Origin: Alphaproteobacteria bacterium
GTDB taxonomy: Bacteria; Pseudomonadota; Alphaproteobacteria; Puniceispirillales; UBA1172
NCBI GenBank assembly: GCA_011522975.1
Contig: WTHX01000063.1
Location: 1 to 41,788, forward strand
Reading direction: 5' to 3'
DNA: 41,788 nt
Part shown: positions 2,268 to 26,660 of the stretch, piece by piece
Position numbering within the stretch: position 1 is the stretch's first letter
Layout of the letters: every line of letters begins with the position of its first letter
Program-made: the position numbers and the translations under genes
Notes under the pieces: model-generated
What the model was told of the DNA's origin: nothing
Seen by the model: only the letters and a program-made list of their open reading frames with translations
Database searches by the model: none

Positions 2268-2309
2268 TACAGCCTGCACCAAGATAATGGGATGATTTGA
2301 AATAATACC

Positions 2310-2372: not shown

Positions 2373-2399
2373 TCATAATTTGAAATGGGGAAGGCGCTG

Positions 2400-3449: not shown

Positions 3450-3521
3450 GCCCATGATGCCCCTTAACAGGGGACAACTGAATGTCAGTTCAATGGCATT
3501 CGCAAAAACAGGGAGTTGAAG

Positions 3522-4748: not shown

Positions 4749-4759
4749 AACCATATCCT

Positions 4760-4797
4760 TCAGGAAGGGGTTCTCCCCTTCCTGAGTCCAGTTTTTT
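4760..4797 (+). terminator. Intercistronic stem-loop after the SBP gene (11-bp perfect stem, 4-nt loop, distal T6 run)
   Basis: TCAGGAAGGGG-TTCT-CCCCTTCCTGA (4760-4785), then GTCCAG and TTTTTT (4792-4797). It sits between the SBP and permease genes. Hairpins there commonly give partial termination or mRNA stabilisation, raising SBP expression over the membrane subunits. Confidence 0.45.
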
Positions 4798-4812
4798 AAG
4801 GCGCATCCAACA

Positions 4813-5838: not shown

Positions 5839-5851
5839 TGAAGGTCTGATC

Positions 5852-6745: not shown

Positions 6746-6773
6746 TGGCTATGGCAATTACAGGAGCGGTACG

Positions 6774-7301
6774 ATGAAGGGTTCACGCCCCGAACAAGCG
6801 GTATTAAGCCGCGATACGGACTTGTCTAAAACAGATGAAACCCGCGCGGTAATCGAAGGCATGGTCGATGGCCTTAATGATCACCGTATTGATGATATTG
6901 GTCAGTTTTTTGCCGAAGGTTTTCGGTGGATGGGCAATACAGGTTGCGGCACAAAAGAAGGTCTGAAAGCCTTTCAAGACAATTGGCAGCGGCCATTCCA
7001 AGCCGCCTTTTCCGATAAAACCTGCATTGATGAAGCCCGCCTTTATATGGGGGAATGGGCGGCTGCTTTTGGCCGACAAGAAGCAACACATTCAGGTGAA
7101 TTTATGGGGATTGCCCCAACAGGAAAGAAAGTTGAAATCCGCTATATGGATTTCTGGAAAGTAGAAGACGGTAAAATTACCGACAATTGGGTCATGGTCG
7201 ACTTTCCCCATGTCATGGCGCAATTGGGCGTTGATGTGTTCAACGGCGAAGGCTGGGAAGCCTATGACCGCGGAGAACGCACCCCGCCATCTCCCGAATA
7301 A
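6774..7301 (+). CDS. Single-domain SnoaL/NTF2-like (ester cyclase-like) protein
   Basis: [46 protein letters not shown] matches the motif repeated in the three two-domain paralogs. GGAG lies 7 nt upstream of the ATG. Confidence 0.75.
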
Positions 7302-7359
7302 AACGAAACATGAAGGGGGCCCCTACGGACTGACCCCAATAGAATTAGAGGATAATGTT

Positions 7360-8670
7360 ATGGCTATTGAGTATTTAAAGCGCAGTAAATCAGAAGCAGA
7401 AATTCGCGAGGATGACGCTAAAACGCGCGCCACGGTCGAAGCAACTTTGGCAGATATTGAAAAGCGCGGCGATGCAGCGGTGCGCGAATTATCCCAAAAA
7501 TTTGACAATTACGCGCCTGAAAACTTTCGCCTGTCGGCAAGCGAGATTGAAGCGGCGATGAATAAAGTATCCACCCGCGATATGGAGGATATTAAATTTG
7601 CCCAAACCCAAATCCGCCGCTTTGCCCAAGAGCAAAGAGCCAGCATGACCGATGTTGAGGTTGAAACGCTGCCGGGTGTTATTTTGGGGCATAAAAATAT
7701 CCCTGTGCAATCGGTGGGCTGTTATGTGCCGGGCGGCAAATTCCCCATGGTGGCGAGCGCCCATATGTCTGTTTTAACCGCATCGGTTGCAGGCGTGCCG
7801 CGGATTATCGCATCAGCCCCGCCCGTCAACGGGGAGCCGCATCCCGCGATTGTTGCCGCTATGGCCATGGGCGGCGCCCATGAAATCTATGTCATGGGCG
7901 GCATCCAAGCGGTGGGTGCTATGGCGATTGGCACTGAGACAATCGACCCTGTTCATATGTTGGTTGGGCCCGGCAATGCCTTTGTTGCCGAAGCCAAACG
8001 CCAGTTATACGGCCGTGTCGGGATTGACCTTTTCGCAGGGCCAACGGAAACCATGGTGATTGCTGATACTACTGTTGATGCTGAGATTTGCGCGACTGAT
8101 CTCTTGGGGCAAGCCGAACATGGCTATAATTCTCCGGCTTGCATGATCACCAATTCGCGGCAATTGGCTGAAGAAACGCTGGAAGAAATTGACCGACTTT
8201 TACAGATTTTGCCGACATCTGAAACCGCCAGCATCAGTTGGCAAGATTACGGCGATATGATCGTCTGTGACAGTTACGATGAAATGTTGGCGGTTGCCAA
8301 TGACATGGCCTATGAGCATGTTCAGGTGATGACTGATCGTGATGATTGGTTCCTCGAACAAATGCATTCCTATGGGGCGTTGTTCTTGGGCGCGCGGACC
8401 AATGTTGCCAATGGCGATAAGGTGATCGGCACCAACCACACTTTGCCGACGAAAAAAGCAGGCCGATATACGGGCGGCTTATGGGTGGGCAAGTTCCTGA
8501 AAACCCATTCCTATCAGAAAGTCATGACCGATGAAGCCGCGGCGATGATCGGTGAATATGGCTCACGTCTTTGCATGCTGGAAGGTTTTGTCGGCCATGC
8601 CGAACAATGCAATATCCGTGTCCGCCGCTATGGGGGCAAGAATGTACCTTATGGTGAGGCGGCCGAATGA
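7360..8670 (+). CDS. Histidinol dehydrogenase-family NAD-dependent dehydrogenase (HisD paralog, not in a his context)
   Basis: [34 protein letters not shown] and [13 protein letters not shown] are HisD-family (PF00815) hallmarks. 436 aa from ATG 7360 (GAGGA upstream). The ORF-track start at 7210 would overlap 92 nt of the upstream gene. Confidence 0.85.
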
Positions 8671-9713
8671 CATCAGCCAGCCATCAAGCCGATGTGATTA
8701 AACCGATACGGCAGGCCATGTATGCTTTTGAGGCATCGTCTGTTCAATCGGCTTTGGCGGCTGTGCTGGCGGCGGATGCAGAAATTCATCTTTGTCATCC
8801 TTTTGGGGATTGTCAGGGGGCGGATGATTATTACGCGACGGCGTATCAGCCGTTATTTCATGCGATCCCTGATCTTGAGCGCCGTGATCTGATTGTTATG
8901 TCAGGCCATGATGGTAAGAGCGATTGGATCGGGGCTTGCGGGTATTACGCCGGCAGTTTCATCCGGCCGTTTTTGGATATCCCGCCAACAGGCCATCATT
9001 GTGCCATGCGGTTTCATGAATTTTATCGCATTGAGGGTGGTCAGGTTGTTGAAATACAAGCGATTTGGGATATTCCAGAGATGATGATGCAGGCCAATGC
9101 TTGGCCAATGGCCCCATCATTGGGGCGGGAATGGCAAGTGCCTGGCCCGGCAACCCAAGATGGGCTTGCGCCGCGCCATGACCCTGAACGCGGTGAAAAG
9201 GCAAAACAAATCGTTATTGATATGCTGACTGACATGACACGGCATCCGTTAGAAGGCGATGCCAAGGTCATGAATCTTGACCGTTATTGGCATCCGCGCA
9301 TGACATGGTATGGCCCTGCAGGAATTGGAACAGCGCGTGGATTGGCAGGGTTTAGGCATTGGCATCAAATCCCGTTTTTAAACGCTATGCCTGATCGTAA
9401 AAGCGGGGCGGCGGTTGATCTGGATATTCATTTCTTCGGCGATGGCGATTATGTCGCTGTCACGGGCTGGCCAGATATGGCCATGACAATCACCCAAGAT
9501 GGCTGGTTGGGGATCGCGCCTTCAGGACAGTCAATCACCATCCGCAGTCTTGATTTCTGGCGGCTTGAAGGTGAGTTGATCCGAGAAAATTGGGTGCTGG
9601 TTGATCTCTTGGATGTTTATCGCCAATTGGGGGTTGATGTGCTGGGGCGGATGCGTGAATTCAACAAGGCCAGATCCATGGGTGAGATCAGTTTGGAGCA
9701 TGATTATCAATGA
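8667..9713 (+). CDS. Tandem SnoaL/NTF2-like two-domain protein (paralog of 1257-2267)
   Basis: [28 protein letters not shown] and [54 protein letters not shown] overlap with the HisD-like stop (8667-8670). Confidence 0.75.
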
Positions 9714-10759
9714 CCAAAATGACGGCCAAACAGCGCATGGGTGCATTGAATAAAGTCACTGCCGTTGATGTGGCGGAGCGGGCTGGCGTGTCGCAATCTG
9801 CCGTCAGCCGTGTTTTTACCCCTGGGGCATCGGTGTCTCCTCAAACTAAAAACAAAGTCTTGAAAGTGGCCATGGAATTGGGGTATCGCCCCAACTCACT
9901 GGCGCGCGCCATGGTTTCTGGCAAGAGCCGTATGATCGGCTTGGTGGTGGCTTATCTGCAAAACCAATTTTACCCAGAAGCCATTGAAAAATTATCCAAA
10001 GCCATGCAGGAAAGAAATTATCACCTGCTTGTTTTCATGACGTCCAAAACCGAAGGTGATGTCAGTGAGGTCTTTGACGAAATTTTAGATTATCAGGTTG
10101 ATGGCATCATCGCAGCATCGGTGGCTTTGTCATCAGATCTATCGAAACGTTGCGCCAATGCGGGCGTGCCTGTGGTGCTGTTTAACCGGTCGCAAGATGA
10201 TGACAGTTTATCATCCGTCACGTCTGAAAATTATCAAGGCGGGCGAAAAATTGCTGAACATTTGATCGCAACTGGCCATCAGCGAATCAGTTTTATCGCG
10301 GGTTGGGAAGGGGCATCGACCCAACGTGACCGGCAAGCCGGATTTATCGACGCGCTGCAAGATGCGGGTGTTGATCTGTGGTCGCGCGGTGTTGGAAATT
10401 TCATCATGGAAGATGCCAAAGCCGCCACCCATGCGATGTTTGCGGGTGGGGTGGAAAATGGTCCGGATGCTATTTTTGTGGCGAATGACCATATGGCTTT
10501 TGCGGTGATGGACACATTGCGTTTTGAATTGGGAATTGCTGTCCCTGAGCAGGTTTCAGTGATTGGGTATGATGATGTGCCGGCCGCGTCTTGGCCATCT
10601 TATAACCTGACCACCGTCCGCCAGCCAACCAACCAGATGGTCACAGCGACTGTTGATCTGTTATTGGCGCAAGTCGAAAATACGGACTTATCGTCCACAG
10701 CCCCTCGTCAAATTAAAATTGATGGCCCGTTGATCATCAGAGGATCAGCAAAGTCATGA
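9710..10759 (+). CDS. LacI-family transcriptional regulator
   Basis: N-terminal HTH VTAVDVAERAGVSQSAVSRVF, YRPNSLARAM hinge, and a periplasmic-binding-protein-like effector domain (VIGYDD). ATGA overlap with the upstream gene (9710-9713). Confidence 0.9.
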   Translation: MTKMTAKQRMGALNKVTAVDVAERAGVSQSAVSRVFTPGASVSPQTKNKVLKVAMELGYRPNSLARAMVSGKSRMIGLVVAYLQNQFYPEAIEKLSKAMQERNYHLLVFMTSKTEGDVSEVFDEILDYQVDGIIAASVALSSDLSKRCANAGVPVVLFNRSQDDDSLSSVTSENYQGGRKIAEHLIATGHQRISFIAGWEGASTQRDRQAGFIDALQDAGVDLWSRGVGNFIMEDAKAATHAMFAGGVENGPDAIFVANDHMAFAVMDTLRFELGIAVPEQVSVIGYDDVPAASWPSYNLTTVRQPTNQMVTATVDLLLAQVENTDLSSTAPRQIKIDGPLIIRGSAKS

Positions 10760-10778
10760 ACAATAAAGGAAGAAGAAT

Positions 10779-11762
10779 ATGAAAGGCTTTAGTCAAAAAT
10801 TTATCGATTTTCCAGATTACATTCTGGGCATCACCAAAGAGATTTGGGAAGACCGCGGAATTGCGACGCTGAATGAATATTACGGTGAAGATATGTATTT
10901 GCGCATGCCTTTGGGGGTTTATCGCGGCAATCAAGGCGTGATCAGCAAAACCATGTCCACGCTGGTGGAATTTCCTGACCGTGAATTATTGGGCGAAGAC
11001 GTGATTTGGTCCGGCAATGAAGATGACGGTATGTTAAGCTCTCACCGTCTTTATTGCACAGGCACGCATCTTGGCCATAGCATGTTTGGTGAGCCGACAG
11101 GAAATACTGTTCACTTCCGTGCCATCGCGGATTGCTATGCCATCAATAACGCGATCACCGATGAATGGCTGGTCCGTGATTATGGCGGTGTCGCCAAGCA
11201 AATTGGCTGGACCGCCCAAGAAGCCGCTGCGCAATTGATCGAAGCCGAGGGCGGCATTGATCACTGTGAAAAACCGCTGACCCCCCACAATGATATGGTC
11301 GGGCCATATACCGGCAAGGGCAATGATAATGAATGGGGGCAGAGATATGCCGATGTGCTTAACCGCATTATGTCGGCTGATCTGGCCGTGATCCCAGAAG
11401 CCTATGATCGTGCCATCAAAGGCGAATACCCAGGCATGACAACGGCAAGAGGCTGGGGTGAAGTTGATCAATTTTGGATTGGCCTGCGGGCGGCTTTCCC
11501 GAACGCGACATTTAAAATTGAACATCAAATTGGCCGTGATGACCCGATGATGCCGCCGCGCGCTGCGATCCGCTGGTCTTTGCATGGTAAGCATGATGGC
11601 TGGGGGTCTTTCGGGCGTCCAACAGGGGCAGAGGTCTATATCCTTGGTATGGCGCATGCTGACTTTGGTGCTTTGGTTACGGATCAGCCTAAGATTAGAA
11701 ATGAATTCGCGCTTTATGACGAAGTGGCGATCTGGAAACAAATTTTGATGCAAACGGGCTGA
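10779..11762 (+). CDS. Tandem SnoaL/NTF2-like two-domain protein (more divergent paralog)
   Basis: MFGEPTGNTVHFRAIADCYAINNAITDEWLVRD and SFGRPTGAEVYILGMAHADF...NEFALYDEVAIWKQI. AAGGAAG lies 6 nt upstream of the ATG. Confidence 0.65.
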   Translation: MKGFSQKFIDFPDYILGITKEIWEDRGIATLNEYYGEDMYLRMPLGVYRGNQGVISKTMSTLVEFPDRELLGEDVIWSGNEDDGMLSSHRLYCTGTHLGHSMFGEPTGNTVHFRAIADCYAINNAITDEWLVRDYGGVAKQIGWTAQEAAAQLIEAEGGIDHCEKPLTPHNDMVGPYTGKGNDNEWGQRYADVLNRIMSADLAVIPEAYDRAIKGEYPGMTTARGWGEVDQFWIGLRAAFPNATFKIEHQIGRDDPMMPPRAAIRWSLHGKHDGWGSFGRPTGAEVYILGMAHADFGALVTDQPKIRNEFALYDEVAIWKQILMQTG

Positions 11763-11795
11763 TTGTCCGTGAAGACCAATGAAGGGGGGAATGAT

Positions 11796-12782
11796 ATGAC
11801 AAAAACCGATATTGAAAGCCGCATTGTCCGTTATGGTGATCTGGTGCCATGCCGCACGGCGTTTATTGATGCCCATACCCCTGGGTCGGATCAAAAGGAA
11901 AATTTCACCATTATCGGTGGCGGTGTTTCTGAAGCCGCGGATCAACATGTTCATATTAAAGACACGCCGGGGTTTAATATTGGCGCGGCGGGGCAACCAC
12001 CGAAATGCCGGAATTCTTTGCATACGCACCGCACGGCCGAAGTGTTCTTTGTGTTGTCAGGCCGCTGGCGGTTCTTCTGGGGGAACACGGGGTCAGACGG
12101 CGAAGTCGTGCTGAACGAAGGGGATGTGATTAATATCCCCACCGGCATTTTCAGAGGCTTTGAGAATATCGGCAATGATTATGGGATGATCATGGCGATC
12201 CTTGGGGGTGATGATGCTGGTGGCGGTGTGATTTGGGCTCCGCAAGTGATCAACGAAGCCCAAGATCATGGCTTGATTCTGGGTCAAAATGGCGTGCTCT
12301 ATGACAGCAAAAAAGGTGAGGCTCTGCCAGATGGTTTTGCCCCGATGCCAACCCTTGATGATGATCAGATGGCGTTATTCCCCCATGTCACCAGCGCTGA
12401 ATTTGTGCCGCGTTTTGTCGCCCGCTATTGGGATATGATGGCGATGGCCGACCATCAGCCGGCCTTGGTGATCGATGAGCATGGCATGCTGAAAGACCGC
12501 CCGGGGTTTAGTCTTGAATTGCTTCGTGAGGGGTCGCTTGATGATACGGCTTACTCAACAGACCGCCATGAAGTTTTAATGGTGATGCGGGGGCATTGGT
12601 CTGTGGATCTGGACGATGACCGTGTCACATTGGCCCCGGGTGATGTGTTTGCCATCCCGCCAGGGATGAAGCGGAAACTTACCCCTGCGATGAGCGGTGA
12701 AGCCAGTCTCTTTCGGGTGCGCAACACCGATGATACTGCAGGCCCAACCATGGCCTTTGAAACAGCCGCGCCATCACGGTAA
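11796..12782 (+). CDS. Bicupin protein; N-terminal domain has an HxHxxxE metal motif, C-terminal domain lacks metal ligands
   Basis: Domain 1: LHTHRTAEVFFVLSG (cupin motif 1) and GDVINIPTGIFRGFEN (motif 2, with Arg where His is usual). Domain 2: PGDVFAIPPGMKRKL with no HxH. ATG 11796 has GAAGGGGGGA upstream. The ORF-track start at 11763 is a TTG. Confidence 0.7.
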   Translation: MTKTDIESRIVRYGDLVPCRTAFIDAHTPGSDQKENFTIIGGGVSEAADQHVHIKDTPGFNIGAAGQPPKCRNSLHTHRTAEVFFVLSGRWRFFWGNTGSDGEVVLNEGDVINIPTGIFRGFENIGNDYGMIMAILGGDDAGGGVIWAPQVINEAQDHGLILGQNGVLYDSKKGEALPDGFAPMPTLDDDQMALFPHVTSAEFVPRFVARYWDMMAMADHQPALVIDEHGMLKDRPGFSLELLREGSLDDTAYSTDRHEVLMVMRGHWSVDLDDDRVTLAPGDVFAIPPGMKRKLTPAMSGEASLFRVRNTDDTAGPTMAFETAAPSR

Positions 12783-12801
12783 GGTTATAAGGGAGGAAAA
12801 T

Positions 12802-13935
12802 ATGACCAAAATTTTAACAAGCCATGTGGGGTCATTGCCCCGAACCCAAGAGGTCGTCGATTTCATTTTCGCACGGGAAAATGAAAAGCCTTATGATCAA
12901 TCTGCATTTAATGATTGCATGGCATCTTCCTGTGCCGAAACAGTACGCCGTCAGGTTGAAGCAGGGATTGATATTGTCTCCGATGGTGAGACGTCAAAAA
13001 TCTCGTATGCCACATATGTCAAAGATCGTTATACAGGGTTTTCTGGCGACAGCCCTCGCAATGCCCCTGGCGATTTAAAATTATTCCCAGGCTTTCTAAA
13101 ACGCTTAGCCGATGATGGCGGCACGCCGCAATACGCCCGCCCCATGTGTACTGGGCCTGTGACGTCAAAAGGCCAAGATGAATTAAACGCCGATATTGCC
13201 AATTTAAAAGCGGCTATGGCCCAACATGGGGCTAAACGAGGCTTTATGAACGCGGCATCCCCTGGGGTGATCTCTTTGTTTTTGCAAAATGATTATTACG
13301 CCAGCCGTGATGACTATCTGGCGGCTTTGGCCGATGCCATGAAAGAAGAATACGAAACCATTGTTGCCGCTGGTCTTGATTTGCAATTGGATTGCCCTGA
13401 TCTGGCGCTTTCGCGGCATATGTTATTCGGGGATTTATCCGATGATGAATTTGTCAAAATTGCCAATACCCATGTTGACGCGTTGAACCACGCGTTGCGC
13501 GATGTCGATCCTGATCGCGTGCGGGTGCATATTTGCTGGGGCAATTACGAAGGCCCGCATATTTGCGATATTGATATGGATAAAGTGTTTTCAACATTGA
13601 TGAACACCCGCGCCCGCTATGTTTTGTTTGAAACATCAAACCCGCGCCATGCCCATGAATGGACGGTCTTCCGCGATCGCAAATCTGAAATTCCAGATGA
13701 TAAAATTCTGGTGCCCGGGGTTGTTGATACCACCACCAATTTTGTCGAACATCCTGAACTGGTGGCAGAACGGATCAAACGTTTCGTTGATATCGTTGGC
13801 GCTGATCGGGTGATTGCAGGTTCAGATTGCGGCTTTGGCACTTTTGCAGGTTTCGGGGCGGTAGACCCTGACATTGCTTATGCCAAATTATCCAGCCTTG
13901 CAGAAGGCGCGGCTTTGGCCTCAAACCGTCTGTAA
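12802..13935 (+). CDS. Cobalamin-independent methionine synthase C-terminal-domain-like (MetE-like, Meth_synt_2) Zn enzyme
   Basis: TSHVGSLPR N-terminus. RVHICWGNYEG (His-x-Cys) and GSDCGFG (Cys) match the MetE Zn-ligand positions. GGGAGG lies 5 nt before ATG 12802. Single domain, 377 aa, so not a full-length MetE. Confidence 0.75.
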   Translation: MTKILTSHVGSLPRTQEVVDFIFARENEKPYDQSAFNDCMASSCAETVRRQVEAGIDIVSDGETSKISYATYVKDRYTGFSGDSPRNAPGDLKLFPGFLKRLADDGGTPQYARPMCTGPVTSKGQDELNADIANLKAAMAQHGAKRGFMNAASPGVISLFLQNDYYASRDDYLAALADAMKEEYETIVAAGLDLQLDCPDLALSRHMLFGDLSDDEFVKIANTHVDALNHALRDVDPDRVRVHICWGNYEGPHICDIDMDKVFSTLMNTRARYVLFETSNPRHAHEWTVFRDRKSEIPDDKILVPGVVDTTTNFVEHPELVAERIKRFVDIVGADRVIAGSDCGFGTFAGFGAVDPDIAYAKLSSLAEGAALASNRL

Positions 13936-13939
13936 GAGA

Positions 13940-14644
13940 ATGGCGCGACTTGACCCGCTGGTGATGCTGCCGGGGATGATGTGCGATGAACGGCTGTTCG
14001 CTCCGCAAAAGGCGGTGATCGCCAATGGCCGTGATGTCATCATCCCTAAGTTATATGGTGGGGAGACCATCACTGATTTAGCGCGTCTGATTTTGGCGCA
14101 ATTGCCAATACGTTTTGCGCTGGCTGGTCTTTCTATGGGCGGTATTGTGGCGATGGAAATGATGCGCCAAGCCCCGCAGCGGATCAGCAAAATGGCGATT
14201 ATGGACAGCAACCCCTTTGCCGAAGATTCCGCCCGGCAGTCATTACGCGACATCCAGATCGATAAAGTTAAAAAAGGGGATTTGCGGGCAGTGATGCGCG
14301 ATGACATGAAACCGCATTATCTGGCCAATACGCCCAACCGTCAGCAGGTGCTTGATCTTTGTATGGCGATGGCGCTTGATCTGGGGGATGATGTTTTTAT
14401 TCAGCAATCGCGCGCTTTGGCCAGCCGTCCGGATCAGTCGGGTTCTTTAGCCAAAGTTAAAGTGCCAAGCCTTATACTTTATGGCGCAGAGGACCAACTT
14501 TGCCCTGAGGACCGTCATTTGGCGATGCATGACTTGATTGCAGGATCAAAACTGGTGAAAATCGAAGGCGCGGGGCATTTGCCCTGTTTGGAAAAACCTG
14601 ATGAAACAACAGCAGCATTGCAACGCTGGTTGGAGGAAGAATGA
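13940..14644 (+). CDS. Alpha/beta-fold hydrolase
   Basis: Nucleophile elbow GLSMGG, late GAEDQLCP and GAGHLP (catalytic His region). ATG 13940 lies 5 nt after the upstream stop. Confidence 0.8.
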   Translation: MARLDPLVMLPGMMCDERLFAPQKAVIANGRDVIIPKLYGGETITDLARLILAQLPIRFALAGLSMGGIVAMEMMRQAPQRISKMAIMDSNPFAEDSARQSLRDIQIDKVKKGDLRAVMRDDMKPHYLANTPNRQQVLDLCMAMALDLGDDVFIQQSRALASRPDQSGSLAKVKVPSLILYGAEDQLCPEDRHLAMHDLIAGSKLVKIEGAGHLPCLEKPDETTAALQRWLEEE

Positions 14645-15336
14645 ACGAGACTTTATTGGCGCTGTTACGCCGTATTGATACCCCAAGTGTTTGTAATGCG
14701 ATTGAAACTGCTCAAGGCAAGCGTGGGTTTAATGCTTTTACCCGTGGCACAATGCTGGCGTCTGACCCAACCGCAGGGGCAATTGTCGGTTATGCCCGCA
14801 CCGCTAAGATCGCCGCCAATGAGCCGCCACAAGACCCGCCAGAGGTAATTAAAAAAAGGCGTATGGCTTATTATCAGCATATGGCTGAAGGCCCAAGACC
14901 AGCGGTTGCTGTGGTTGAAGATGTTGATTTTCCCCATGCTGTTGGTGCGTTTTGGGGAGAGGTGAACACCACTGTCCATAAAGGCTTTGGCCTGTCAGGG
15001 GTGCTGACCAATGGCGTGATGCGGGATTTGGGCGATCTGGCCTCTGATTTTCCTGTTATCGCAGGGTCCATTGGCCCGTCCCATGCCTTTGTTCATGTCC
15101 GTGAAATTGGCACACCTGTAACGATTTTTTCCATGACCGTAAATGATGGTGATTTGATTCATGCCGATCGCCATGGCGGTGTTGTGATCCCGCCTGAAGT
15201 GATTCCTGATCTGGAAGCCGCTATTTTAAAAATGTTTGCAACCGAAAAACTGATTCTTGAACCTGCCCGCCAAGATGATTTTGACTTTGAAGCCTTTCAA
15301 AAAGCATGGGCGGCATTTGAGGCGGCGCGGACGTAA
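14641..15336 (+). CDS. RraA-like / 4-hydroxy-4-methyl-2-oxoglutarate (CHA/HMG) aldolase-family protein
   Basis: Size of about 230 aa. N-terminal TPSVCNAIE and the central VVEDV...GAFWGEV...GFGLSGVLTNGVMRD pattern are typical of PF03737. ATGA overlap with the upstream gene (14641-14644). Confidence 0.65.
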   Translation: MNETLLALLRRIDTPSVCNAIETAQGKRGFNAFTRGTMLASDPTAGAIVGYARTAKIAANEPPQDPPEVIKKRRMAYYQHMAEGPRPAVAVVEDVDFPHAVGAFWGEVNTTVHKGFGLSGVLTNGVMRDLGDLASDFPVIAGSIGPSHAFVHVREIGTPVTIFSMTVNDGDLIHADRHGGVVIPPEVIPDLEAAILKMFATEKLILEPARQDDFDFEAFQKAWAAFEAART

Positions 15337-15370
15337 CAATTTGGCCAATAAGATGGGTGTGACTAGACGA

Positions 15371-15398
15371 TTATCGCTTATCGCTTATCGATTATAGA
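15371..15398. repeat. Tandem heptamer repeat TTATCGC-TTATCGC-TTATCGA-TTATAGA in a 126-nt intergenic gap
   Basis: Read directly. Followed by TTGACG (15399-15404). The 12-mer ATTATCGCTTAT recurs at 41770-41781. Confidence 0.7.
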
Positions 15399-15462
15399 TT
15401 GACGGTGATGCAGAATTTCGGTTCTGATAATGGCGTGCAATCAGATCAAAGGATGAGTGATC

Positions 15463-16299
15463 ATGGCCGCGTATCAAAAGCCAGTGAAATGGCAAAACCC
15501 CAAGGTAAAACTGTTTCCGCATCAGGTGGGATTCACCTGCCCGCCCCATGATTTTGACGCCGGGCCGACCGATTTTCTACGCATCGCCCCACGTTCAGTG
15601 GGTGTTCATGGCTGGATGCTTCATGTTCCTGACTATGCCCACCGTTTGGACCAGCGGAAGCAAAATTTCAATATGCTGGAAGACTTCGTCCATAACATGG
15701 CCAATAATGGCGTCGATGTTTGTGGTCAGGTGGGGTCAAACTGGGTTCATGCTTGCGGGCTTGGGGTTGAAGGGGTTCGACAACATTGCGAACGCCTATC
15801 CGATACTTATGAAACGCCCTTCCATATGGCTGGTTATGCCATGGTTGAAGCCTTGCGTGAGATTAACGCTGAAAAAGTCGCGCTCAATGCCTGTTACCAC
15901 CGCGATACTTGGTATCAAGGCACGGTTGGGTTTTTGAAAGAGGCGGGGTTTGACGTTGTCTGGGCGGGCAATTTTTATGACCAAGGCTGGTTCCCCAGCC
16001 AGCAGGATGTTGATGATTGCATCTGGTGCTTTGATGAACAATTGCTTTGGGATTCGTTTGATTATGTTGCGGATAAAGCCCCCAATGTTGACGCCTATTT
16101 GATCAACGGTATGAGCAATTACCGCCGCCCATCCGATGGATTGGCACAGCGTCCATTGCACCATGAAAAAGCATTGGAAGCCCGATTGGGCAAACCCATT
16201 ATCGGGCATGACACCGCGTTATATTGGCGGATTTTCAAAACCCTTGGGCTGGCCCCTGAAACCGACCAAGGCCGATTACTGGCATCATTAAAAGGCTGA
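15463..16299 (+). CDS. Asp/Glu/hydantoin racemase-superfamily protein (maleate isomerase / arylmalonate decarboxylase-like), atypical active site
   Basis: Segment-by-segment resemblance to maleate cis-trans isomerases: AMVEALREINAEKVALNACY, VGFLKEAGFDV, VDAYLINGMSNY, LGKPIIGHDTALYWRIFKTLGL, GRLLASL. ATG 15463 is preceded by AAAGGATGAG. Alignment done from memory only. Confidence 0.5.
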   Translation: MAAYQKPVKWQNPKVKLFPHQVGFTCPPHDFDAGPTDFLRIAPRSVGVHGWMLHVPDYAHRLDQRKQNFNMLEDFVHNMANNGVDVCGQVGSNWVHACGLGVEGVRQHCERLSDTYETPFHMAGYAMVEALREINAEKVALNACYHRDTWYQGTVGFLKEAGFDVVWAGNFYDQGWFPSQQDVDDCIWCFDEQLLWDSFDYVADKAPNVDAYLINGMSNYRRPSDGLAQRPLHHEKALEARLGKPIIGHDTALYWRIFKTLGLAPETDQGRLLASLKG

Positions 16300-16352
16300 C
16301 CAAGTCAGCCCCAAAACTCCAAAAAAAGATTTTAGGTTTAAAGGAAAAGTAA

Positions 16353-17093
16353 ATGCATAAGATTGTTGCTCTTTGGGCGGTGCCGCGGTCCACCTCAACC
16401 GCCTTTGAATGGATGATGCGCCAGCGTGGTGATCTCAACTGCCTGCATGAACCTTTTGGTGAGGCATGGTATCAAGGCGAAGACCCGTTATGGCCGCGGT
16501 TTCAAGATGGCGATAAAACCACCGCTGGCCTGACGCTGGAAAGCGTTTGGGATGACATCAAAGCCAAGGCTGAACAAGGCCCTGTCTTTATCAAAGACTT
16601 TCCCCATTACATCAACCATATGTGGGATGCTGAATTTTTAAGCCATTTCACCCATGCGTTTTTAATCAGGGATCCTGCCAAAACCTTAACATCGCTTTAT
16701 GCCCGTTGGCCTGATTTTGATGAATTGGAAGTCGGTTTCCCTGAACAGCGTGCGCTCTATGATTTGGTCACGGCGTTGAATGGGTCTGCCCCGCCTGTGG
16801 TGGATAGTGATGATCTGCTGGAAAACCCCCATGACATGACCGCTGCTTTTTGTGATGCGGTGGGCATTCCCTTTGTTGAAAGCGCCCTCACGTGGGAAGC
16901 AGGCGGTGATCCGTCCGAGCACAGTTGGTGGGATGGTGGGTCATTCCACGCCAATTTAGCGCAATCCACAGGCCTAACCCCGCAAAAACGCAAATATGTT
17001 GATCTGGAAAACACCCCCGATCGGGTGAAGCGGGTCTATCGCCGCATGATGCCCCATTATCAGCATCTTCATCAGAACAGATTGACGGTCTGA
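16353..17093 (+). CDS. Sulfotransferase-like P-loop-type protein (function uncertain)
   Basis: N-terminal LWAVPRSTSTAF resembles the 5'-PSB (PAPS phosphate-binding) motif P(K/R)SGST of sulfotransferases. 246 aa. AAGGAAAAG SD. Confidence 0.45.
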   Translation: MHKIVALWAVPRSTSTAFEWMMRQRGDLNCLHEPFGEAWYQGEDPLWPRFQDGDKTTAGLTLESVWDDIKAKAEQGPVFIKDFPHYINHMWDAEFLSHFTHAFLIRDPAKTLTSLYARWPDFDELEVGFPEQRALYDLVTALNGSAPPVVDSDDLLENPHDMTAAFCDAVGIPFVESALTWEAGGDPSEHSWWDGGSFHANLAQSTGLTPQKRKYVDLENTPDRVKRVYRRMMPHYQHLHQNRLTV

Positions 17094-17096
17094 TCA

Positions 17097-18341
17097 ATGG
17101 ATAATCCTGCCGCGCGGCTAAATAAAATTATCCAAGACAGGCTTTGCATCGGCTGCGGGTTATGCGCCAGTTTTGCTGGCGATGACGCGATTGGTTTTGG
17201 GCTGAATGATGATGGTGATCTTGTCCCTTTTGCCCGTGATGGCCTGACCGATGCGGTGATGGATCAAGTCGATCAGATTTGCCCATCCATGCGGGTTGAA
17301 GGCCTGCCCCAACACCTGATTGATGACAGCCCCCATCATGATCTGGTCTGGGGGCCTCACCATGGGCTGAAGACAGGTCATGCGGGTGATGCGATGATCC
17401 GTCATATCGGTTCAACCGCAGGGGTGTTGACCGCTTTGGGATGTTTTTTGCTGGCGTCAGGTGAGGTTGATTTTATCGCCCATGTTAAAGTCGCTGATGA
17501 CCCGCCGCATCATGGCATGGCCACGATCAGCACCACCCAAGATGAGGTGATCGCGGCGGCGGGATCACGCTATGGGCCAACCGCGCCGTTGCGGCATATC
17601 ATGGCGCTTTTGGATCGCGGTCAGCCTTTTGCCTTGATCGCCAAACCTTGCGATTTAAACGCGGTTCGTAATCTGGCGCATCTTGATGAGCGGGTTGACC
17701 GTTTGATTAAATATTGGCTGACGCCAGTATGCGGCGGCTTTACCCCTGATGAAGGTTATCAGCAGTTCTTAGACCGCCACCACATCCCGAAAGAAGATGT
17801 TAAGGCCTTGCGTTACCGCGGCTATGGATGCCCTGGGCCAACGCAATTGACCATGGCGTCTGGTGAGACGAAGGACATTCATTATCTTGATTTCTGGGGG
17901 GATGATGAAAGCCATTGGGTCTTGCCCTTGCGCTGTAAAATCTGTCCTGATGGGATAGGTGAAGGGGCTGATCTGGCGGCGTCTGACACATGGGATGGCG
18001 GCTCACCTGATCGTGTTGAGAGCGAAACAGATCTGGGGTTAAACCATATGATCATCCGCACCAAGGCCGGAATGGAATTGGTGGAAAATGCGGTGAAAGC
18101 AGGGTATCTGACCATTACCACTGATGCCACGATTGACGACCTTAACCGCACCCAGCCGCATCAAGTCAAAAAGAAATATGCCGGGCTGGCGCGTGCCCAT
18201 GGGCTTGCCGAAGCAGGTAGCTTTGCGCCTCAACTGGTCAATATTCGTGCCGAAGCCCTTACAGATGCAGCCGGTGAAGATGCCTATGAGCGGGAAAAAC
18301 AAGGCAGTAAGAAAAGAGCATTGGCGTTAAAAAATAATTGA
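17097..18341 (+). CDS. Coenzyme F420 hydrogenase/dehydrogenase beta-subunit (FrhB/FdhB)-like flavo/FeS oxidoreductase
   Basis: N-terminal CIGCGLC cluster motif, GSTAGVLTALG, LIAKPCDLNAVRNL (the G/KPC motif of the FrhB_FdhB C domain), and later C-x2-C (CKICPDG). Starts 3 nt after the upstream stop. Confidence 0.6.
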   Translation: MDNPAARLNKIIQDRLCIGCGLCASFAGDDAIGFGLNDDGDLVPFARDGLTDAVMDQVDQICPSMRVEGLPQHLIDDSPHHDLVWGPHHGLKTGHAGDAMIRHIGSTAGVLTALGCFLLASGEVDFIAHVKVADDPPHHGMATISTTQDEVIAAAGSRYGPTAPLRHIMALLDRGQPFALIAKPCDLNAVRNLAHLDERVDRLIKYWLTPVCGGFTPDEGYQQFLDRHHIPKEDVKALRYRGYGCPGPTQLTMASGETKDIHYLDFWGDDESHWVLPLRCKICPDGIGEGADLAASDTWDGGSPDRVESETDLGLNHMIIRTKAGMELVENAVKAGYLTITTDATIDDLNRTQPHQVKKKYAGLARAHGLAEAGSFAPQLVNIRAEALTDAAGEDAYEREKQGSKKRALALKNN

Positions 18342-18354: not shown

Positions 18355-18383
18355 TTGACAGCACCAGAGCCCATGGATAATGA
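18355..18383 (+). promoter_or_regulatory. Sigma70-type promoter TTGACA-N15-GATAAT driving the riboswitch leader
   Basis: TTGACA at 18355-18360 and GATAAT at 18376-18381 (alternatively N17-TAATGA), about 10 nt before the riboswitch begins. Confidence 0.5.
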
Positions 18384-18389
18384 TTTACA

Positions 18390-18610
18390 TATATTGGTGA
18401 CCAAGGCCAAAGGCCGAGGTAGAATAGGGAATTCGGTGCGCCGTATCCATCAGGAAGCAAATCCGAAGCTGTACCCGCAACTGTAGATGGTTGATGTATG
18501 CCCTAACGCCACTGGACGGATCGTATCCAAACCATAGGGGGTTCGTTTGGGAAGGCGGTATGCATCTAAAACCATAAGCCAGAAGACCTGCCAATGTGAA
18601 GCAACCAACT
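18390..18610 (+). promoter_or_regulatory. Cobalamin (B12) riboswitch
   Basis: Conserved core in canonical order: AGGGAA (18426-18431), CGGTG (18434-18438), AAATCCGAAGCTGTACCCGCAACTGTA (to 18485), GCCACTGG (18508-18515), GGGAAGGCGG (18549-18558), B12 box AAGCCAGAAGACCTGCC (18576-18592). Possible P1: TTGGT (18394) with ACCAA (18604). Boundaries are approximate. No cmsearch run. Confidence 0.85.
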
Positions 18611-18640
18611 TGGGGCGGGTGTCCCCTCATGGAGTGAAAC

Positions 18641-18820
18641 ATGGCGCAAACTATCCTCGAAGCACGCGACCAATCCGTCGTGCATCCCAATGGCTCACCA
18701 GACCGAGCAACCCAATCTGAATTTGATCTGACAAGTTTCAGCATCTTTAACGCTTGCCTGATGGCAATGGTGATCGCCGCCCCGATTTGGGCGTCCATCG
18801 CGTACATCTTAATGCGTTAA
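18641..18820 (+). CDS. 59-aa small membrane protein (below the ORF-track length cutoff), first gene after the B12 riboswitch
   Basis: My translation: MAQTILEARDQSVVHPNGSPDRATQSEFDLTSFSIFNACLMAMVIAAPIWASIAYILMR. GGAG (18631-18634) lies 6 nt before the ATG. The C-terminus is a single hydrophobic helix. It fills the otherwise unexplained gap of about 250 nt between the riboswitch and the ABC genes. Confidence 0.55.
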   Translation: MAQTILEARDQSVVHPNGSPDRATQSEFDLTSFSIFNACLMAMVIAAPIWASIAYILMR

Positions 18821-18857
18821 AATCTCTTTCAAGGGATTTCCTTTTTGGAATATCAAG

Positions 18858-19613
18858 ATGCTGAATGTTCACCAGATCGCGCTGGGCTATAATGGCACGC
18901 CGCTCATCCAAGATTTGACCTTTGCGTTAAATCAAGGTGAGGTTTGTGCTGTTATTGGGCATAATGGGTCAGGCAAATCCACTTTGATGCGGACCTTGCT
19001 TGGCATACAGCCGCCGCTTGTAGGCAAAATCGAATGGCAGGATGTTGCGCATGACGGCCAGCCCCGAAATATCGCCTATCTTGGCCAGAGCGCTGATCTT
19101 GACCATCAATTTCCGATGCGGGTCAAAGATGCTGTCGCCATGGGGGCTTGGAAAGGGCTTGGGTTTTGGACAGGCATTGATCAAACCAAGGCAGATCGCA
19201 TCGACTATGCCCTGACGCGAACAGGCCTGACGGATATGGCGAATAAGCCTTTATACGCCTGTTCTTCGGGGCAAATGCAGCGCTGTTTCTTTGCCCGCGC
19301 CATTGTTCAAGACTCCCCAATACTTCTGTTGGATGAACCGTTTTCAACAATTGATCAAACAACGCAATCACGCTTGGTTGAGATCATCAAAGAATGGCGG
19401 CAAGAAGGCCGGGGGGTGATGATTGTTTTGCATGATCTGTCGGCGGTTATGGGGATTGCGGATACGTGTTTGCTGTTGGGGGATGGCCGGGCTTCTTTTG
19501 GTCAGGCTGAAGACATCATCACCATCGATAACTTGATCGCCCATCATTATTTATCTGAAACCCAAGCCGAATGGCTCACGCTCCTGCAACAAAAAGGAGT
19601 GCAGAATGTTTGA
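18858..19613 (+). CDS. Metal ABC transporter ATP-binding protein (ZnuC/MntA-like)
   Basis: Walker A GHNGSGKST, signature SSGQMQRCFFARA, Walker B ILLLDEPFSTID, H-loop VLHDL. Size of about 250 aa, typical of the ABC-3 system ATPase. Confidence 0.9.
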   Translation: MLNVHQIALGYNGTPLIQDLTFALNQGEVCAVIGHNGSGKSTLMRTLLGIQPPLVGKIEWQDVAHDGQPRNIAYLGQSADLDHQFPMRVKDAVAMGAWKGLGFWTGIDQTKADRIDYALTRTGLTDMANKPLYACSSGQMQRCFFARAIVQDSPILLLDEPFSTIDQTTQSRLVEIIKEWRQEGRGVMIVLHDLSAVMGIADTCLLLGDGRASFGQAEDIITIDNLIAHHYLSETQAEWLTLLQQKGVQNV

Positions 19614-20445
19614 GTGGCTTGAGTATGATTTCATGCAGCGCGCCTTGGTGGCGACCTCTGTTTTGAGCGTTTCGATCGCCCCTGTTGGAGCGTTTTTGGT
19701 GCTTCGCCGTTTGTCGCTTGCGGGTGAGGCCATGGCCCATGCGATTGTCCCCGGGATTGTGATTGCTTTTGTGATTTTTGGCTTATCGGCGGTTTCAATG
19801 ATCACTGGCGGGTTGATCGCTGGTATTTTGGTGGCTTTGGGCACGTCGATGCTGGCACGCCGCACCTTGATCAGAGAAGACGCATCATTGGCCTCGCTTT
19901 ACTTAATCGCGCTTGCTCTGGGGATTTTTATCCTATCGGCGGCGGGCTCAGCCATACCGCTTAAGAGTTTTCTTTTTGGCTCTGCTTTGGGGATTGGTGA
20001 TGACACATTAATTTTGATCGGGGTGACAGCCACCATCACGCTTTTGACCTTTGCTGTCATGTTGCGGCCTTTGATTGCGGCGACGTTTGATCCGATCTTT
20101 TATGAAAGCCAATCGCATCGCCCTGGGCTGGTGCAGCAATGGTTTATGTTTGTGCTGGTGTTGAACTTGCTGGCAGCGTTTAAATCTTTGGGCACGCTGA
20201 TGGCGGTGGGGTTGATGATTCTGCCGGCAACAGCGGCGCGATATTGGGTTTCCACCATCACCAGTTATATGTTTCTGACCCTGATCTTTGCGATCTTGAG
20301 TTGTTGGATTGGGCTTATTTTATCCTTCTACCTCAGCCAAGTGCCAACAGGCCCTGCCATTGTGCTGGTTGCAGGTGGGTTCTTCTTTTTCAGTCTATTT
20401 TTTGCCCCATTGGGGATCATCTGGGGACGTGCCGTACAAAAATAG
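19606..20445 (+). CDS. Metal ABC transporter permease (ABC-3 family, ZnuB/MntB-like)
   Basis: N-terminus FMQRALVATSVLSVSIAPVGAFLVLRRLSLAGEAMAHAIVPG is the ZnuB-type signature. 8-9 hydrophobic spans. 8-nt overlap with the ATPase gene. Confidence 0.9.
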   Translation: MFEWLEYDFMQRALVATSVLSVSIAPVGAFLVLRRLSLAGEAMAHAIVPGIVIAFVIFGLSAVSMITGGLIAGILVALGTSMLARRTLIREDASLASLYLIALALGIFILSAAGSAIPLKSFLFGSALGIGDDTLILIGVTATITLLTFAVMLRPLIAATFDPIFYESQSHRPGLVQQWFMFVLVLNLLAAFKSLGTLMAVGLMILPATAARYWVSTITSYMFLTLIFAILSCWIGLILSFYLSQVPTGPAIVLVAGGFFFFSLFFAPLGIIWGRAVQK

Positions 20446-20465
20446 GGCGGTGGATACTGGTTATC

Positions 20466-21359
20466 ATGAAAAAAATATCTCTCTTTAAACCGATTTTTCT
20501 GATGGTCATTGCCCTGGCCAATTCGTCATGGGCCAACCCGTCTTGGGCCAAGGTCAATGTGGTGGCGAGTTTTTCGATACTGGGTGATATGGTTGCTGAA
20601 GTGGCAGGCGATAAAGCCCATGTCACCACCATTGTTGGGCCTGATGCTGATGCCCATCTTTATCAACCCAATACAGGGGATGCGGTTGCAGTCGCCAAAG
20701 CAGACCTTGTGATTGTCAATGGCTTGGGGTTTGAAACATGGTCGGCTCAATTGATCAAAACATCAGGCACGAAAGCCACCATCGCTGTCGCCACTGATGG
20801 CATTACCCCGCTTTTGGTGGAAGGTGCGGTTGACCCCCACGCGTGGAATTCCCTCACCAATGGTATGATTTATGTCAATAATATCGAAGCCGCATTATCC
20901 GCCGCCAGCCCACAAGATGCGGCGTATTTTAAAGCCAATGCCAATGCTTATCGGGCGCAAATGATGGCGCTTCACAACCGTGCTCTGGCGGATATTACAA
21001 CATTGCCCGAAGGCAAACGCATTGTTGTGACAGCCCATGATGCGTTTGGATATCTTGCCGATGCTTATGGTTTGACATTCCTAGCCCCGCAAGGGATTGA
21101 TACCGAAGCCGAGCCTTCAGCCAAAGAATTGGCAGCGTTAATCGCTTTCCTCAATGAACAAGGGGCGGGCGCGTTGTTTGTTGAAAATATCGCCAATGCT
21201 GATCTCATCGAACAAATTTCAAGGGAAACAGGGATTAAAATCGGGGGGCGGATATATTCCGATGCCCTGTCGGTCAAAGGCTCACCCGCGACATCTTATC
21301 TTGCTATGTTTGCCCATAATCTTGACGTGCTGACAACAACGCTTGCGGCGTCCAAATAA
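20466..21359 (+). CDS. Metal-binding periplasmic protein (TroA/ZnuA cluster A-I type) without a His-rich loop
   Basis: Signal peptide MKKISLFKPIFLMVIALANSSWA. Candidate ligands DAHLYQP, DPHAWNS, AHDAFGY, YSDAL (a His-His-His-Asp pattern like TroA). Only a short segment precedes DPHAW, where ZnuA carries its His/acidic loop. The ORF-track start at 20244 would overlap the permease gene by about 200 nt. Confidence 0.85.
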   Translation: MKKISLFKPIFLMVIALANSSWANPSWAKVNVVASFSILGDMVAEVAGDKAHVTTIVGPDADAHLYQPNTGDAVAVAKADLVIVNGLGFETWSAQLIKTSGTKATIAVATDGITPLLVEGAVDPHAWNSLTNGMIYVNNIEAALSAASPQDAAYFKANANAYRAQMMALHNRALADITTLPEGKRIVVTAHDAFGYLADAYGLTFLAPQGIDTEAEPSAKELAALIAFLNEQGAGALFVENIANADLIEQISRETGIKIGGRIYSDALSVKGSPATSYLAMFAHNLDVLTTTLAASK

Positions 21360-21369
21360 CAGCAAAAAG

Positions 21370-21391
21370 AAAAGCCCCAAAAGGGGCTTTT
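21370..21391. terminator. Bidirectional rho-independent terminator between convergent genes
   Basis: AAAAGCCCC-AAAA-GGGGCTTTT. The A-run and T-run flanks allow function on both strands. Confidence 0.75.
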
Positions 21392-21420
21392 CAGACCATG
21401 CAAGGATACATGATGGTGAA

Positions 21421-25498: not shown

Positions 25499-25595
25499 TA
25501 TCTTTGTTTCACTTTTTTCCTCGTTTTACCTCTTTCATTCGCGTAAATATAAATCATCAAGACAACGACCTTAAACTCAAAGAAAGGTGGATGCT

Positions 25596-26660
25596 ATGCG
25601 TATTCTTATTCTCGGGGCTTCTTATGGATCACTCCTATCAACAAAACTGTTGATGGCTGGCCATGATGTGACGTTGATCTGCCGTCAGCAATCGGCTGAC
25701 CTGATCAATAAAGAAGGCACGGAAGTCCGCATTAAATTGCGTGATGAAGACCAGCATCGTTCTTTCTTCTCAAAAGACTTGCCGGGTCATGTTGATGCCG
25801 TCACACCAGAAGCGGCCAAGCCCGAAGATTATGATATGATCGCCCTCGCCATGCAGGAGCCGCAATATTCATCAGGCCCTGTTCGTGACTTGATGCAACG
25901 AATCGCCCATTCAGGCAAGCCTTGTCTTTCGATCATGAATATGCCGCCATTGCCATACCTTAAGCGGATTCCTGCCCTTGCAGAAATGGATTTGGACGCC
26001 TGCTTTGATGATGCCAGTGTCTGGGCTGATTTCGACCCTGATCTGGTAACACTCTGCAGCCCTGATCCGCAAGCCTTCCGCCCACCGGAAGAAGGGTCTA
26101 ATGTTCTGCATGTTGGCCTGCCAACCAATTTCAAAGCGGCCGATTTCGCCCGCCCTGAACATAACGAAATGCTTCAGCAATTGGTTGATGACATTGCCGC
26201 GGTGACAGTCGATGGCAAAGATGTGCCGGTTAAATTGCGCCGCCATGAAAGCCTATTTGTGCCCATGGCAAAATGGAGCATGTTGCTGACCGGCAATTAT
26301 CGCTGTGTCTTGACCAATGGTGAACAGCCGATCCGTGACGCTGTCCATGGTGATCTTAACGCATCAATGGCGATGTATGCTTGGGTTGATCAATTGGCCC
26401 AAACATTGGGGGCTGATCCCGCTGACCAAGTGCCGTTCGAAAAATATGCCAATGCGGCTGAAGGCTTGTTGAAGCCATCATCTGCGGCGCGGGCGATTGC
26501 TGCTGGTGCGACCAAAATTGAACGTGTTGACATGTTGGTGAAGACAATCGGTGCGCAAATGGGCATGCAGAACGACACGGTTGATAATATCGTCTCCCGT
26601 GTTGATGGCCGCTTGATGGCGAATGGTGCCAAGGAAGCTGAACTTGAGCGAGCGGGCTAA
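25596..26660 (+). CDS. Ketopantoate reductase (ApbA/PanE)-like NAD(P)-dependent oxidoreductase, divergent
   Basis: N-terminal Rossmann MRILILGASYGSLLSTKLLMAGHDVTLICR. The central PMAKWSMLLTGNYRCVL resembles the KPR catalytic-Lys helix (K.w.N...N). AAAGGTGG lies 5 nt before ATG 25596. The ORF-track start at 25587 is a GTG. Confidence 0.5.
   Translation: MRILILGASYGSLLSTKLLMAGHDVTLICRQQSADLINKEGTEVRIKLRDEDQHRSFFSKDLPGHVDAVTPEAAKPEDYDMIALAMQEPQYSSGPVRDLMQRIAHSGKPCLSIMNMPPLPYLKRIPALAEMDLDACFDDASVWADFDPDLVTLCSPDPQAFRPPEEGSNVLHVGLPTNFKAADFARPEHNEMLQQLVDDIAAVTVDGKDVPVKLRRHESLFVPMAKWSMLLTGNYRCVLTNGEQPIRDAVHGDLNASMAMYAWVDQLAQTLGADPADQVPFEKYANAAEGLLKPSSAARAIAAGATKIERVDMLVKTIGAQMGMQNDTVDNIVSRVDGRLMANGAKEAELERAG

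Follow-up and report, generated by a model that had tools for sequence, protein, structure and literature searches.

Why should an importer whose family is known for carrying zinc, manganese, and iron be placed under the control of vitamin B12? The question is raised by a stretch of DNA of 41,788 nucleotides from an alphaproteobacterium of the Puniceispirillales (contig WTHX01000063.1, assembly GCA_011522975.1; hereafter the window), in which a cobalamin riboswitch is followed, in the 3' direction on the plus strand, by four co-directional genes encoding a membrane microprotein, an ATP-binding cassette (ABC) ATPase, an ABC-3 permease, and a substrate-binding protein (SBP). Cobalt is scarce in surface seawater, B12 comes from a minority of bacteria and limits algae and other microbes, and the SAR116 clade (Puniceispirillales) ranks with the most abundant clades of heterotrophs; to our knowledge, a dedicated cobalt importer has not been assigned to it. 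Surveys annotate the system considered here as a "zinc/manganese" transporter, and reviews describe the cluster A-I binding proteins as carriers of zinc, manganese, or iron. The answer that we favor is that the importer probably supplies Co(II) for cobalamin synthesis and is repressed by adenosylcobalamin (AdoCbl), with cobalt as the substrate that we infer from the regulator and from the genomic neighborhood of related copies.

The nature of the regulator is the firmest point of departure. Rfam cmscan recognized the aptamer of a cobalamin riboswitch (RF00174) at positions 18378 to 18609 of the plus strand, with a peripheral extension on P6; the score was 97.9 bits (gathering score, 31.5; E = 2.2e-23), and the match covered the model in full length (positions 1 to 189 of 189). 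No other Rfam family was found in the whole window. An earlier note on this DNA had recognized the riboswitch from its core elements, all of which, including the B12 box (AAGCCAGAAGACCTGCC, 18576 to 18592), are present where the note had placed them, and the RF00174 match agrees with that assignment. The promoter proposed upstream of the aptamer (18355 to 18381, plus strand; -35 TTGACA at 18355 to 18360 and -10 GATAAT at 18376 to 18381, with a 15-nucleotide spacer) is also present. A single-sequence promoter scan of the window returned 4 such sites against 3.9 expected, which is chance level, but 15 of 17 related loci keep a TTGAC(A/G/T) hexamer at a fixed distance 5' of the aptamer, which makes the promoter credible; judging from this conservation, transcription most likely starts at the TTGACA promoter.

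The pairing of riboswitch and transporter is not peculiar to the window. A homologue set of 25 genome loci, 80 metagenome loci, and 5 contigs was assembled, and riboswitches were counted with Rfam scans and an aptamer hidden Markov model, which reproduced every Rfam call, in the 76 loci with enough upstream DNA. A riboswitch stands directly before the operon in 39 of these 76 loci. Its presence follows the relatedness of the binding protein: it occurs in 11/11 loci whose SBP is at least 75% identical to that of the window, in 25/30 loci at 60 to 75% identity, in 3/6 loci at 50 to 60%, and in 0/29 loci below 50%. The named carriers are all Alphaproteobacteria, namely Puniceispirillaceae (SAR116), Thalassobaculaceae, Rhodospirillaceae, Hyphomicrobiales, Mangrovicoccus, and Hwanghaeella. 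To judge by the loci closest to it, the window itself comes from a marine member of the SAR116/Puniceispirillaceae type. Thus, the combination of a cobalamin riboswitch with an ABC-3 operon is conserved in several alphaproteobacterial lineages.

Downstream of the aptamer, cross-locus alignment disclosed a short hairpin, present in nearly all loci, which we designate P13 (GGGG-CGGGUGU-CCCC; 18612 to 18626, plus strand). Since minimum free energy folding of the expression platform alone was uninformative (z-score of 0.15), we relied on covariation: compensatory changes occur in 3 of the 5 pairs of the P13 stem, the covariation score was reached by 0/500 shuffles, and a control in which the register was slid along the alignment peaks at 0. 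The P13 loop sequence GCGGG is complementary to the CCCGC of L5 (18474 to 18478), each being kept in 37 of the 39 riboswitch-bearing loci, and the two form a candidate kissing loop; the predicted L5/L13 arrangement is the canonical kissing-loop geometry of cobalamin riboswitches. Directly 3' of P13 lie a Shine-Dalgarno (SD) sequence (GGAG, 18631 to 18634) and the ATG (18641 to 18643) of the microprotein gene, an order and layout (18631 to 18643, plus strand) that are conserved across loci. Transcription attenuation was rejected, since a terminator scan found no intrinsic terminator in the leader, where a U-tract is absent. Because the SD sequence and the ATG follow the covarying P13, control by the riboswitch is probably translational; the RNA would bind a corrinoid and thereby repress the gene that follows it.

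If the riboswitch ties the operon to B12, the genes around its relatives, which we inspected within flanks of 6 to 10 kb, may tell which metal is concerned. In 11 SAR116-type loci, cob genes adjoin the operon, and they do so in two independent arrangements. Nine loci (among them L002, L003, L026 to L029, L031, and L032) carry them downstream in convergent orientation; five of these (L026 to L029 and L032) contain the full aerobic cluster CobS, CobT, CobU, CobC, CbiB, CobD, CobQ, CobO, CobW, and CobN, and DUF1636 is present in the cluster of L026 to L029, the other contigs ending earlier. In L005 and L006, cobU-cobT-cobS lie immediately upstream and are co-directional with the operon. In L026 and L028, the riboswitch of the transporter is the only one across about 20 kb of cob cluster, and the B12-controlled step in these two loci may be metal supply rather than the enzymes. 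The visible cob cluster, from CobS to CobN, extends over 7905 to 20879 in L026 and 702 to 13675 in L028 and is otherwise devoid of cobalamin riboswitches.

The zinc-related features are distributed in the opposite way. Zinc-starvation markers were found in 0/39 riboswitch-bearing loci, and the DNA upstream of the riboswitch-bearing operons contained no palindrome resembling a Zur box, whereas zinc-cluster markers (DUF1636, zinc-type COG0523, WD40, folE2, or a Zur box) accompany 8/8 of the riboswitch-less homologues with an SBP identity of at least 50%. In L016, the order is a Zur box (GATATGTTATAACATA, about 3532 to 3547), DUF1636, the microprotein gene, the ABC-3 genes, COG0523, and a WD40 propeller, a layout shared by L015, L057, L060, and L061; the zinc clusters span 3530 to 9520 in L016 and 3303 to 9233 in L015. 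In L086, DUF1636 is the only zinc-cluster marker shown, and the Pseudomonas loci L019 and L020 carry folE2 and COG0523. The cob cluster of SAR116 has DUF1636 too, ahead of CobW-CobN (L026, 18088 to 18525), and its occurrence there as well as in the zinc clusters means that it pairs with COG0523 in cobalt and zinc settings. Among homologues of 44 to 46% identity, a Zur-box-like palindrome (TGTTATGTTATAACAA) lies at about 4020 to 4040 in L021 and about 4130 to 4150 in L022, in both of which a gene for an ArsP_1-family permease comes right after the SBP gene (6924 to 8009 and 6954 to 8099, respectively).

As regards the importer itself, the earlier note had described a 59-codon open reading frame (ORF) followed by a complete ABC-3 system, and Pfam matches to all three ABC components, each above its gathering score within one operon, substantiate this: an AztA-like ATPase (18858 to 19613, plus strand; PF00005, 95.4 bits), an AztB-like ABC-3 permease (19606 to 20445, plus strand; PF00950, 168.7 bits), whose gene overlaps that of the ATPase by 8 nucleotides, and an AztC-like periplasmic cluster A-I binding protein (20466 to 21359, plus strand; PF01297, 267.2 bits). 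For the SBP, a TTG start at 20244 was rejected in favor of the ATG at 20466, which yields a protein of 297 residues with a signal peptide. The convergent SBP and bhcA-like genes are separated by a G+C-rich hairpin (21369 to 21392), which the terminator scan called as a minus-strand terminator; read on the plus strand, this stem comes after the stop codon of the SBP gene, and it is the probable end of the operon.

The note had labeled the importer a ZnuCBA/TroA-type system, and of this description the ABC-3 part stands, but the system comes closest to AztABC, not to ZnuABC or TroA. The closest NCBIfam models of the set NF040873/NF040871/NF040870 are AztA for the ATPase (184.8 bits against a cut-off of 220), AztB for the permease (221.4 against 280), and AztC for the SBP (263.4 against 350), all below the equivalog cut-offs, while ZnuA (68 against 268), ZnuB (65 against 284), and ZnuC (92 against 306) are below theirs and MntC and MntA appear as secondary matches, likewise below cut-off. 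A sequence search of the PDB with the SBP returned Paracoccus AztC as the best match (E = 5e-72, about 45% identity). The His-His-His-Asp site that the note had pointed out is recovered by alignment to AztC as H64, H125, H191, and D266, which correspond to the His3-Asp zinc site of AztC and are invariant across all homologues, as is Trp127 of the DPHAW motif. In the alignment to AztC structures (5W56), neither the His-containing D-loop of AztC nor the His-rich loop of ZnuA was found, the latter in keeping with what the note had said. The AlphaFold2 model of the SBP (predicted local distance difference test of 76.8, predicted template modeling score of 0.77) features a long interdomain helix (residues 149 to 178); its best structural match is holo-AztC (5W57), with YfeA and PsaA also among the best, and its fold agreement corresponds to template modeling scores of 0.72 to 0.81. 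Cluster A-I importers are marked by a binding protein of two alpha/beta lobes with a single long rigid helix between them, by conserved metal ligands, and by a conserved Trp, and the SBP of the window conforms to this pattern. Family scans found no gene for the AztD chaperone flanking the operon. The system is thus an AztABC-like cluster A-I importer without AztD, and neither a ZnuABC nor a manganese-type system: the E. coli type of ZnuABC was ruled out by scores below the cut-offs, by the missing His-rich loop, and by the missing Zur box, and the manganese/iron type of cluster A-I (His-His-Glu-Asp) by the third ligand, which is His191 in all homologues.

Behind the riboswitch, the operon opens with the gene for the membrane microprotein of 59 residues (18641 to 18820, plus strand), a conserved ORF that gene finders call and that, where named, is a "hypothetical protein". 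Nearly all loci whose spacer was examined have a gene for a microprotein of 37 to 77 residues in this position (for instance, L001, 1531 to 1710; L007, 4132 to 4269; L012, 3749 to 3982; L015, 4115 to 4228; L016, 4133 to 4267; L021, 4118 to 4243; L022, 4208 to 4336), the copy in L009 being divergent, and none was found in the spacer of the Pseudomonas loci L019 and L020. An artifact of the leader was rejected on account of this conserved position, and an identity with CbtB or another known family was rejected as well, since Pfam and NCBIfam searches gave no match even at E <= 10. The proteins share a hydrophilic N terminus, an EF-x-L-T-x-(L/F)-S motif, and a single C-terminal transmembrane helix that contains an invariant Trp; those of the zinc type in L021 and L022 start with HHHHH. 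Since the small ORF is present in riboswitch-linked and Zur-linked operons alike, it belongs to the transporter, and we treat the microprotein as a putative fourth component of the transporter subfamily, whose gene would be the one directly gated by the riboswitch.

Taken together, these elements allow us to propose how the operon would work. With AdoCbl bound, the L5 sequence CCCGC would kiss the P13 loop GCGGG, and the kissing interaction would lock a structure abutting the SD sequence and the ATG of the microprotein gene, so that translation would be blocked; expression of the ATPase, the permease, and the binding protein would fall too, by way of coupling, polarity, or mRNA decay. At low B12, the operon would be expressed, the periplasmic SBP would capture the metal at its His3-Asp site and deliver it to the permease, and cobalt that has reached the cytoplasm would pass to CobW and CobNST. 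SAR116 includes cobalamin producers, and a pangenomic study of the clade lists only corC and rcnA under cobalt (PMC12262181). Two published results also speak for cobalt: the metal transporters so far assigned to B12-riboswitch regulons are all for this metal (PMC3766115), and Co(II) ranks second among the ligands of a zinc-type cluster A-I SBP in vitro (PMC4542158).

Several observations weigh against this proposal. In a bootstrapped neighbor-joining tree, the SBPs of the SAR116 group, the other riboswitch-linked SBPs, and both Zur/COG0523-linked subclades form a clade of 58 proteins (98/100 support), so that the two zinc-linked subclades nest inside the riboswitch-linked clade, and monophyly of the riboswitch-linked SBPs was rejected (0/100 bootstraps). 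A first pass for discriminating residues gave only two weak positions, S93 and V118, and no residue separates riboswitch-linked from zinc-linked SBPs (36 versus 7 sequences, at a threshold of 85%); the four metal ligands, moreover, are identical to those of the zinc-specific AztC. Around the copy in the window, no cob genes were found anywhere in the 41.8 kb (about 18 kb on either side), nor were they found in the flanks of riboswitch-bearing loci outside SAR116. Finally, the SD sequence lies 3 to 8 nucleotides downstream of P13 and not within it, which is why the exact mechanism of SD occlusion proposed above is conjectural. As far as the alignments indicate, an obvious cobalt preference is not encoded in the protein sequence, and it is the regulator and the neighbors that differ. 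Because zinc-specific relatives share this binding site, exclusivity for cobalt is probably not an intrinsic property of the importer, whose role would be set mainly by the regulator. Of the B12-regulated Co(II) import put forward in the earlier note, the regulatory part is therefore strongly supported, by the 39 of 76 loci and the covarying platform, and the case for cobalt is circumstantial; the identical site in the Zur-linked sisters, which nest inside the riboswitch clade, makes a cobalt-specific importer doubtful.

What other need could a B12-sensing metal importer serve? MetE is a zinc enzyme, and a zinc importer turned on when B12 is scarce could feed such zinc-dependent, B12-independent enzymes, which take the place of B12-dependent ones. 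The closest characterized relative, AztC, is zinc specific with the same His3-Asp site, the nearest riboswitch-less sisters are Zur regulated, and there is precedent for B12-independent isozymes under B12-riboswitch control (PMC2770081); yet the SAR116 operon is linked to cob biosynthesis genes and not to metE, COG0523, folE2, and Zur features accompany no riboswitch-linked copy, and producers that sense low AdoCbl most directly need cobalt. Furthermore, the metal transporters previously placed in B12-riboswitch regulons are all for cobalt and none for zinc (PMC3766115), no zinc transporter being reported in any B12 regulon, and we regard this explanation as quite improbable. Closer to our own proposal, and unlikely rather than improbable in our judgment, is a general zinc and cobalt scavenger over which the lineages have placed either Zur or the B12 riboswitch, selectivity being exerted downstream by CobW or zinc-type COG0523 proteins. 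The uniform ligand set, the lack of group-discriminating residues, and the Zur-linked subclades within the riboswitch clade agree with it, as do the DUF1636/COG0523 partners, which come in a cob flavor (DUF1636-CobW-CobN in L026) and a zinc flavor (L016), and the in vitro stabilization by cobalt, second only to that by zinc, of P. aeruginosa ZnuA, a zinc-type cluster A-I protein (PMC4542158). Such a scavenger overlaps with the best explanation, from which it differs in emphasis alone, but the riboswitch and the zinc markers strictly exclude each other, which shows that, for the cell, each version answers a need of its own.

The known Mn/Fe binders PsaA, MntC, and YfeA have Glu as the third ligand, and the His191 found here, together with AztC as the best match in both sequence and structure, speaks against an importer of manganese or iron that would support a B12-independent class I ribonucleotide reductase at low B12. 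This explanation can draw on the secondary matches to MntC and MntA, on the fact that group III of cluster A-I is typically of the Mn/Fe type (PMC7731109), and on the B12 riboswitches that can control the B12-independent reductase (PMC2770081); no nrd genes were seen in any neighborhood examined, and we consider it very remote. Most improbable of all is that the riboswitch controls the small ORF alone, or sits there by chance, with the ABC genes expressed independently. In the window, the ATPase gene starts only after a gap of 37 nucleotides from the small ORF, which would leave room for that, but the layout recurs in 39 loci, the stop codon of the small ORF overlaps the ATPase start in relatives (TGATG in L015, TAATG in L016), no terminator was found between the two genes, and the small ORF goes with Zur-regulated operons too. 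Import of Co(II) for cobalamin synthesis under AdoCbl repression is the reading that we retain.

A wider hypothesis, possible but in our opinion doubtful, is that one tight cluster A-I clade has been repeatedly rewired between Zur and AdoCbl-riboswitch control with its metal site unchanged, zinc or cobalt import being set by the regulators and by the COG0523 partner (CobW versus zinc type) rather than by the SBP, and that the microprotein is a true fourth subunit linking the permease to the cytoplasmic hand-off. The COG0523 family itself offers an analogy, in that it is a single family split between cobalt (CobW) and zinc and told apart mainly by genomic context and regulator, a B12 riboswitch in the one case and Zur in the other (PMC2770081); its members, however, are cytoplasmic chaperones and not transporters.

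How much of this is new can be gauged from the systems that come closest. AztABCD, the zinc importer of Paracoccus denitrificans with the group III protein AztC, is the best match for all three core proteins, with which it has the His3-Asp site, the ABC-3 permease, and the fold in common. The window proteins, however, miss all three NCBIfam equivalog cut-offs, the operon is without the AztD gene and the SBP without the His-containing D-loop that in AztC receives zinc from AztD, Zur control there is replaced here by a cobalamin riboswitch, and an additional microprotein gene comes first. Also close are the Zur-regulated clusters of L015, L016, L057, L060, and L061, whose SBPs are 58 to 64% identical to that of the window, belong to the same clade (98/100), and are encoded in the same gene order with the microprotein first; they differ in having a Zur box (as in L016) and no riboswitch, in the flanking COG0523 and WD40 genes, and in their hosts, which are Gammaproteobacteria or unclassified Pseudomonadota and not Alphaproteobacteria.

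From the side of regulation, a close parallel is CbtJKL of Sinorhizobium meliloti, an ABC cobalt importer that this B12-producing alphaproteobacterium keeps under a cobalamin riboswitch (PMC7689651); the regulatory logic is shared, and so is the role that we propose. It is the only canonical ABC example among the riboswitch-controlled cobalt importers, but CbtJ is BtuF-like (cluster A-II) and works with another permease family, whereas the window SBP is a PF01297 protein of cluster A-I, and CbtJKL is backed by 57Co and growth experiments, whereas the window system is known from its sequence. CbiMNQO, CbtAB, CbtC/D/G, NiCoT/HoxN, and HupE share the regulon and the inferred purpose (PMC3766115 and PMC2667541), but they are energy-coupling factor or secondary transporters of unrelated folds without a cluster A-I SBP. 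Our reading of the literature found no description of a cluster A-I/ABC-3 system behind a cobalamin riboswitch, although an earlier passing mention is possible, and the observation in the earlier note that ABC-3 systems are absent from lists of B12-regulated cobalt importers holds with the same reservation. Thus, the regulatory logic is familiar, while the transporter family would be new for a cobalt/B12 role and comes with an unannotated microprotein.

If the operon is a cobalt gate for B12 synthesis, a family assigned to zinc, manganese, and iron would gain a fourth metal, and "zinc transporter" signals in metatranscriptomes of these bacteria would have to be reread as signs of B12 or cobalt limitation. 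In that case, the riboswitch-regulated and Zur-regulated sisters with identical metal sites would constitute a natural experiment on metal selectivity. A microprotein component that annotation pipelines leave unnamed is now flagged.

Two loci depart from the usual arrangement of riboswitch and operon. In L046 (10920 to 11113 and 11205 to 11453), the SBP gene is immediately followed by a second cobalamin riboswitch, after which come an 82-codon ORF without family and an Mrp/Mnh antiporter cluster; this riboswitch is uninformative. In L056, a contig of 2.4 kb, the riboswitch lies directly before a gene for an SBP of 300 residues (664 to 1825), with no microprotein, ATPase, or permease genes in between, and this may be an orphan riboswitch-controlled binding protein.

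The rest of the window is occupied by genes of other functions. Upstream, a large co-directional island (373 to 18341) encodes a sugar-type ABC transporter, a LacI regulator, five SnoaL-like proteins, a cupin, a short MetE-like (Meth_synt_2) protein, an alpha/beta hydrolase, RraA-like and Amdase-like proteins, a sulfotransferase, FrhB-like proteins, and a histidinol-dehydrogenase-like gene product; L030 shows synteny with the portion that runs from Meth_synt_2 to FrhB, and the whole looks like an uncharacterized catabolic cluster. For two downstream ORFs, 25587 to 26660 (357 residues) and 39922 to 41760 (612 residues), no Pfam family was found. The downstream region (21421 to 41760) further encodes a BhcA-like aminotransferase (587.9 bits, below the cut-off of 650) with a ScfR-type regulator, succinyl-coenzyme A (CoA)-ligase-like proteins, a thiamine pyrophosphate enzyme with a family III CoA-transferase (a pair resembling oxalyl-CoA decarboxylase and formyl-CoA transferase), a formyltransferase, a formate-tetrahydrofolate ligase, and a TctABC transporter, a gene content that suggests C2/C1 acid metabolism.

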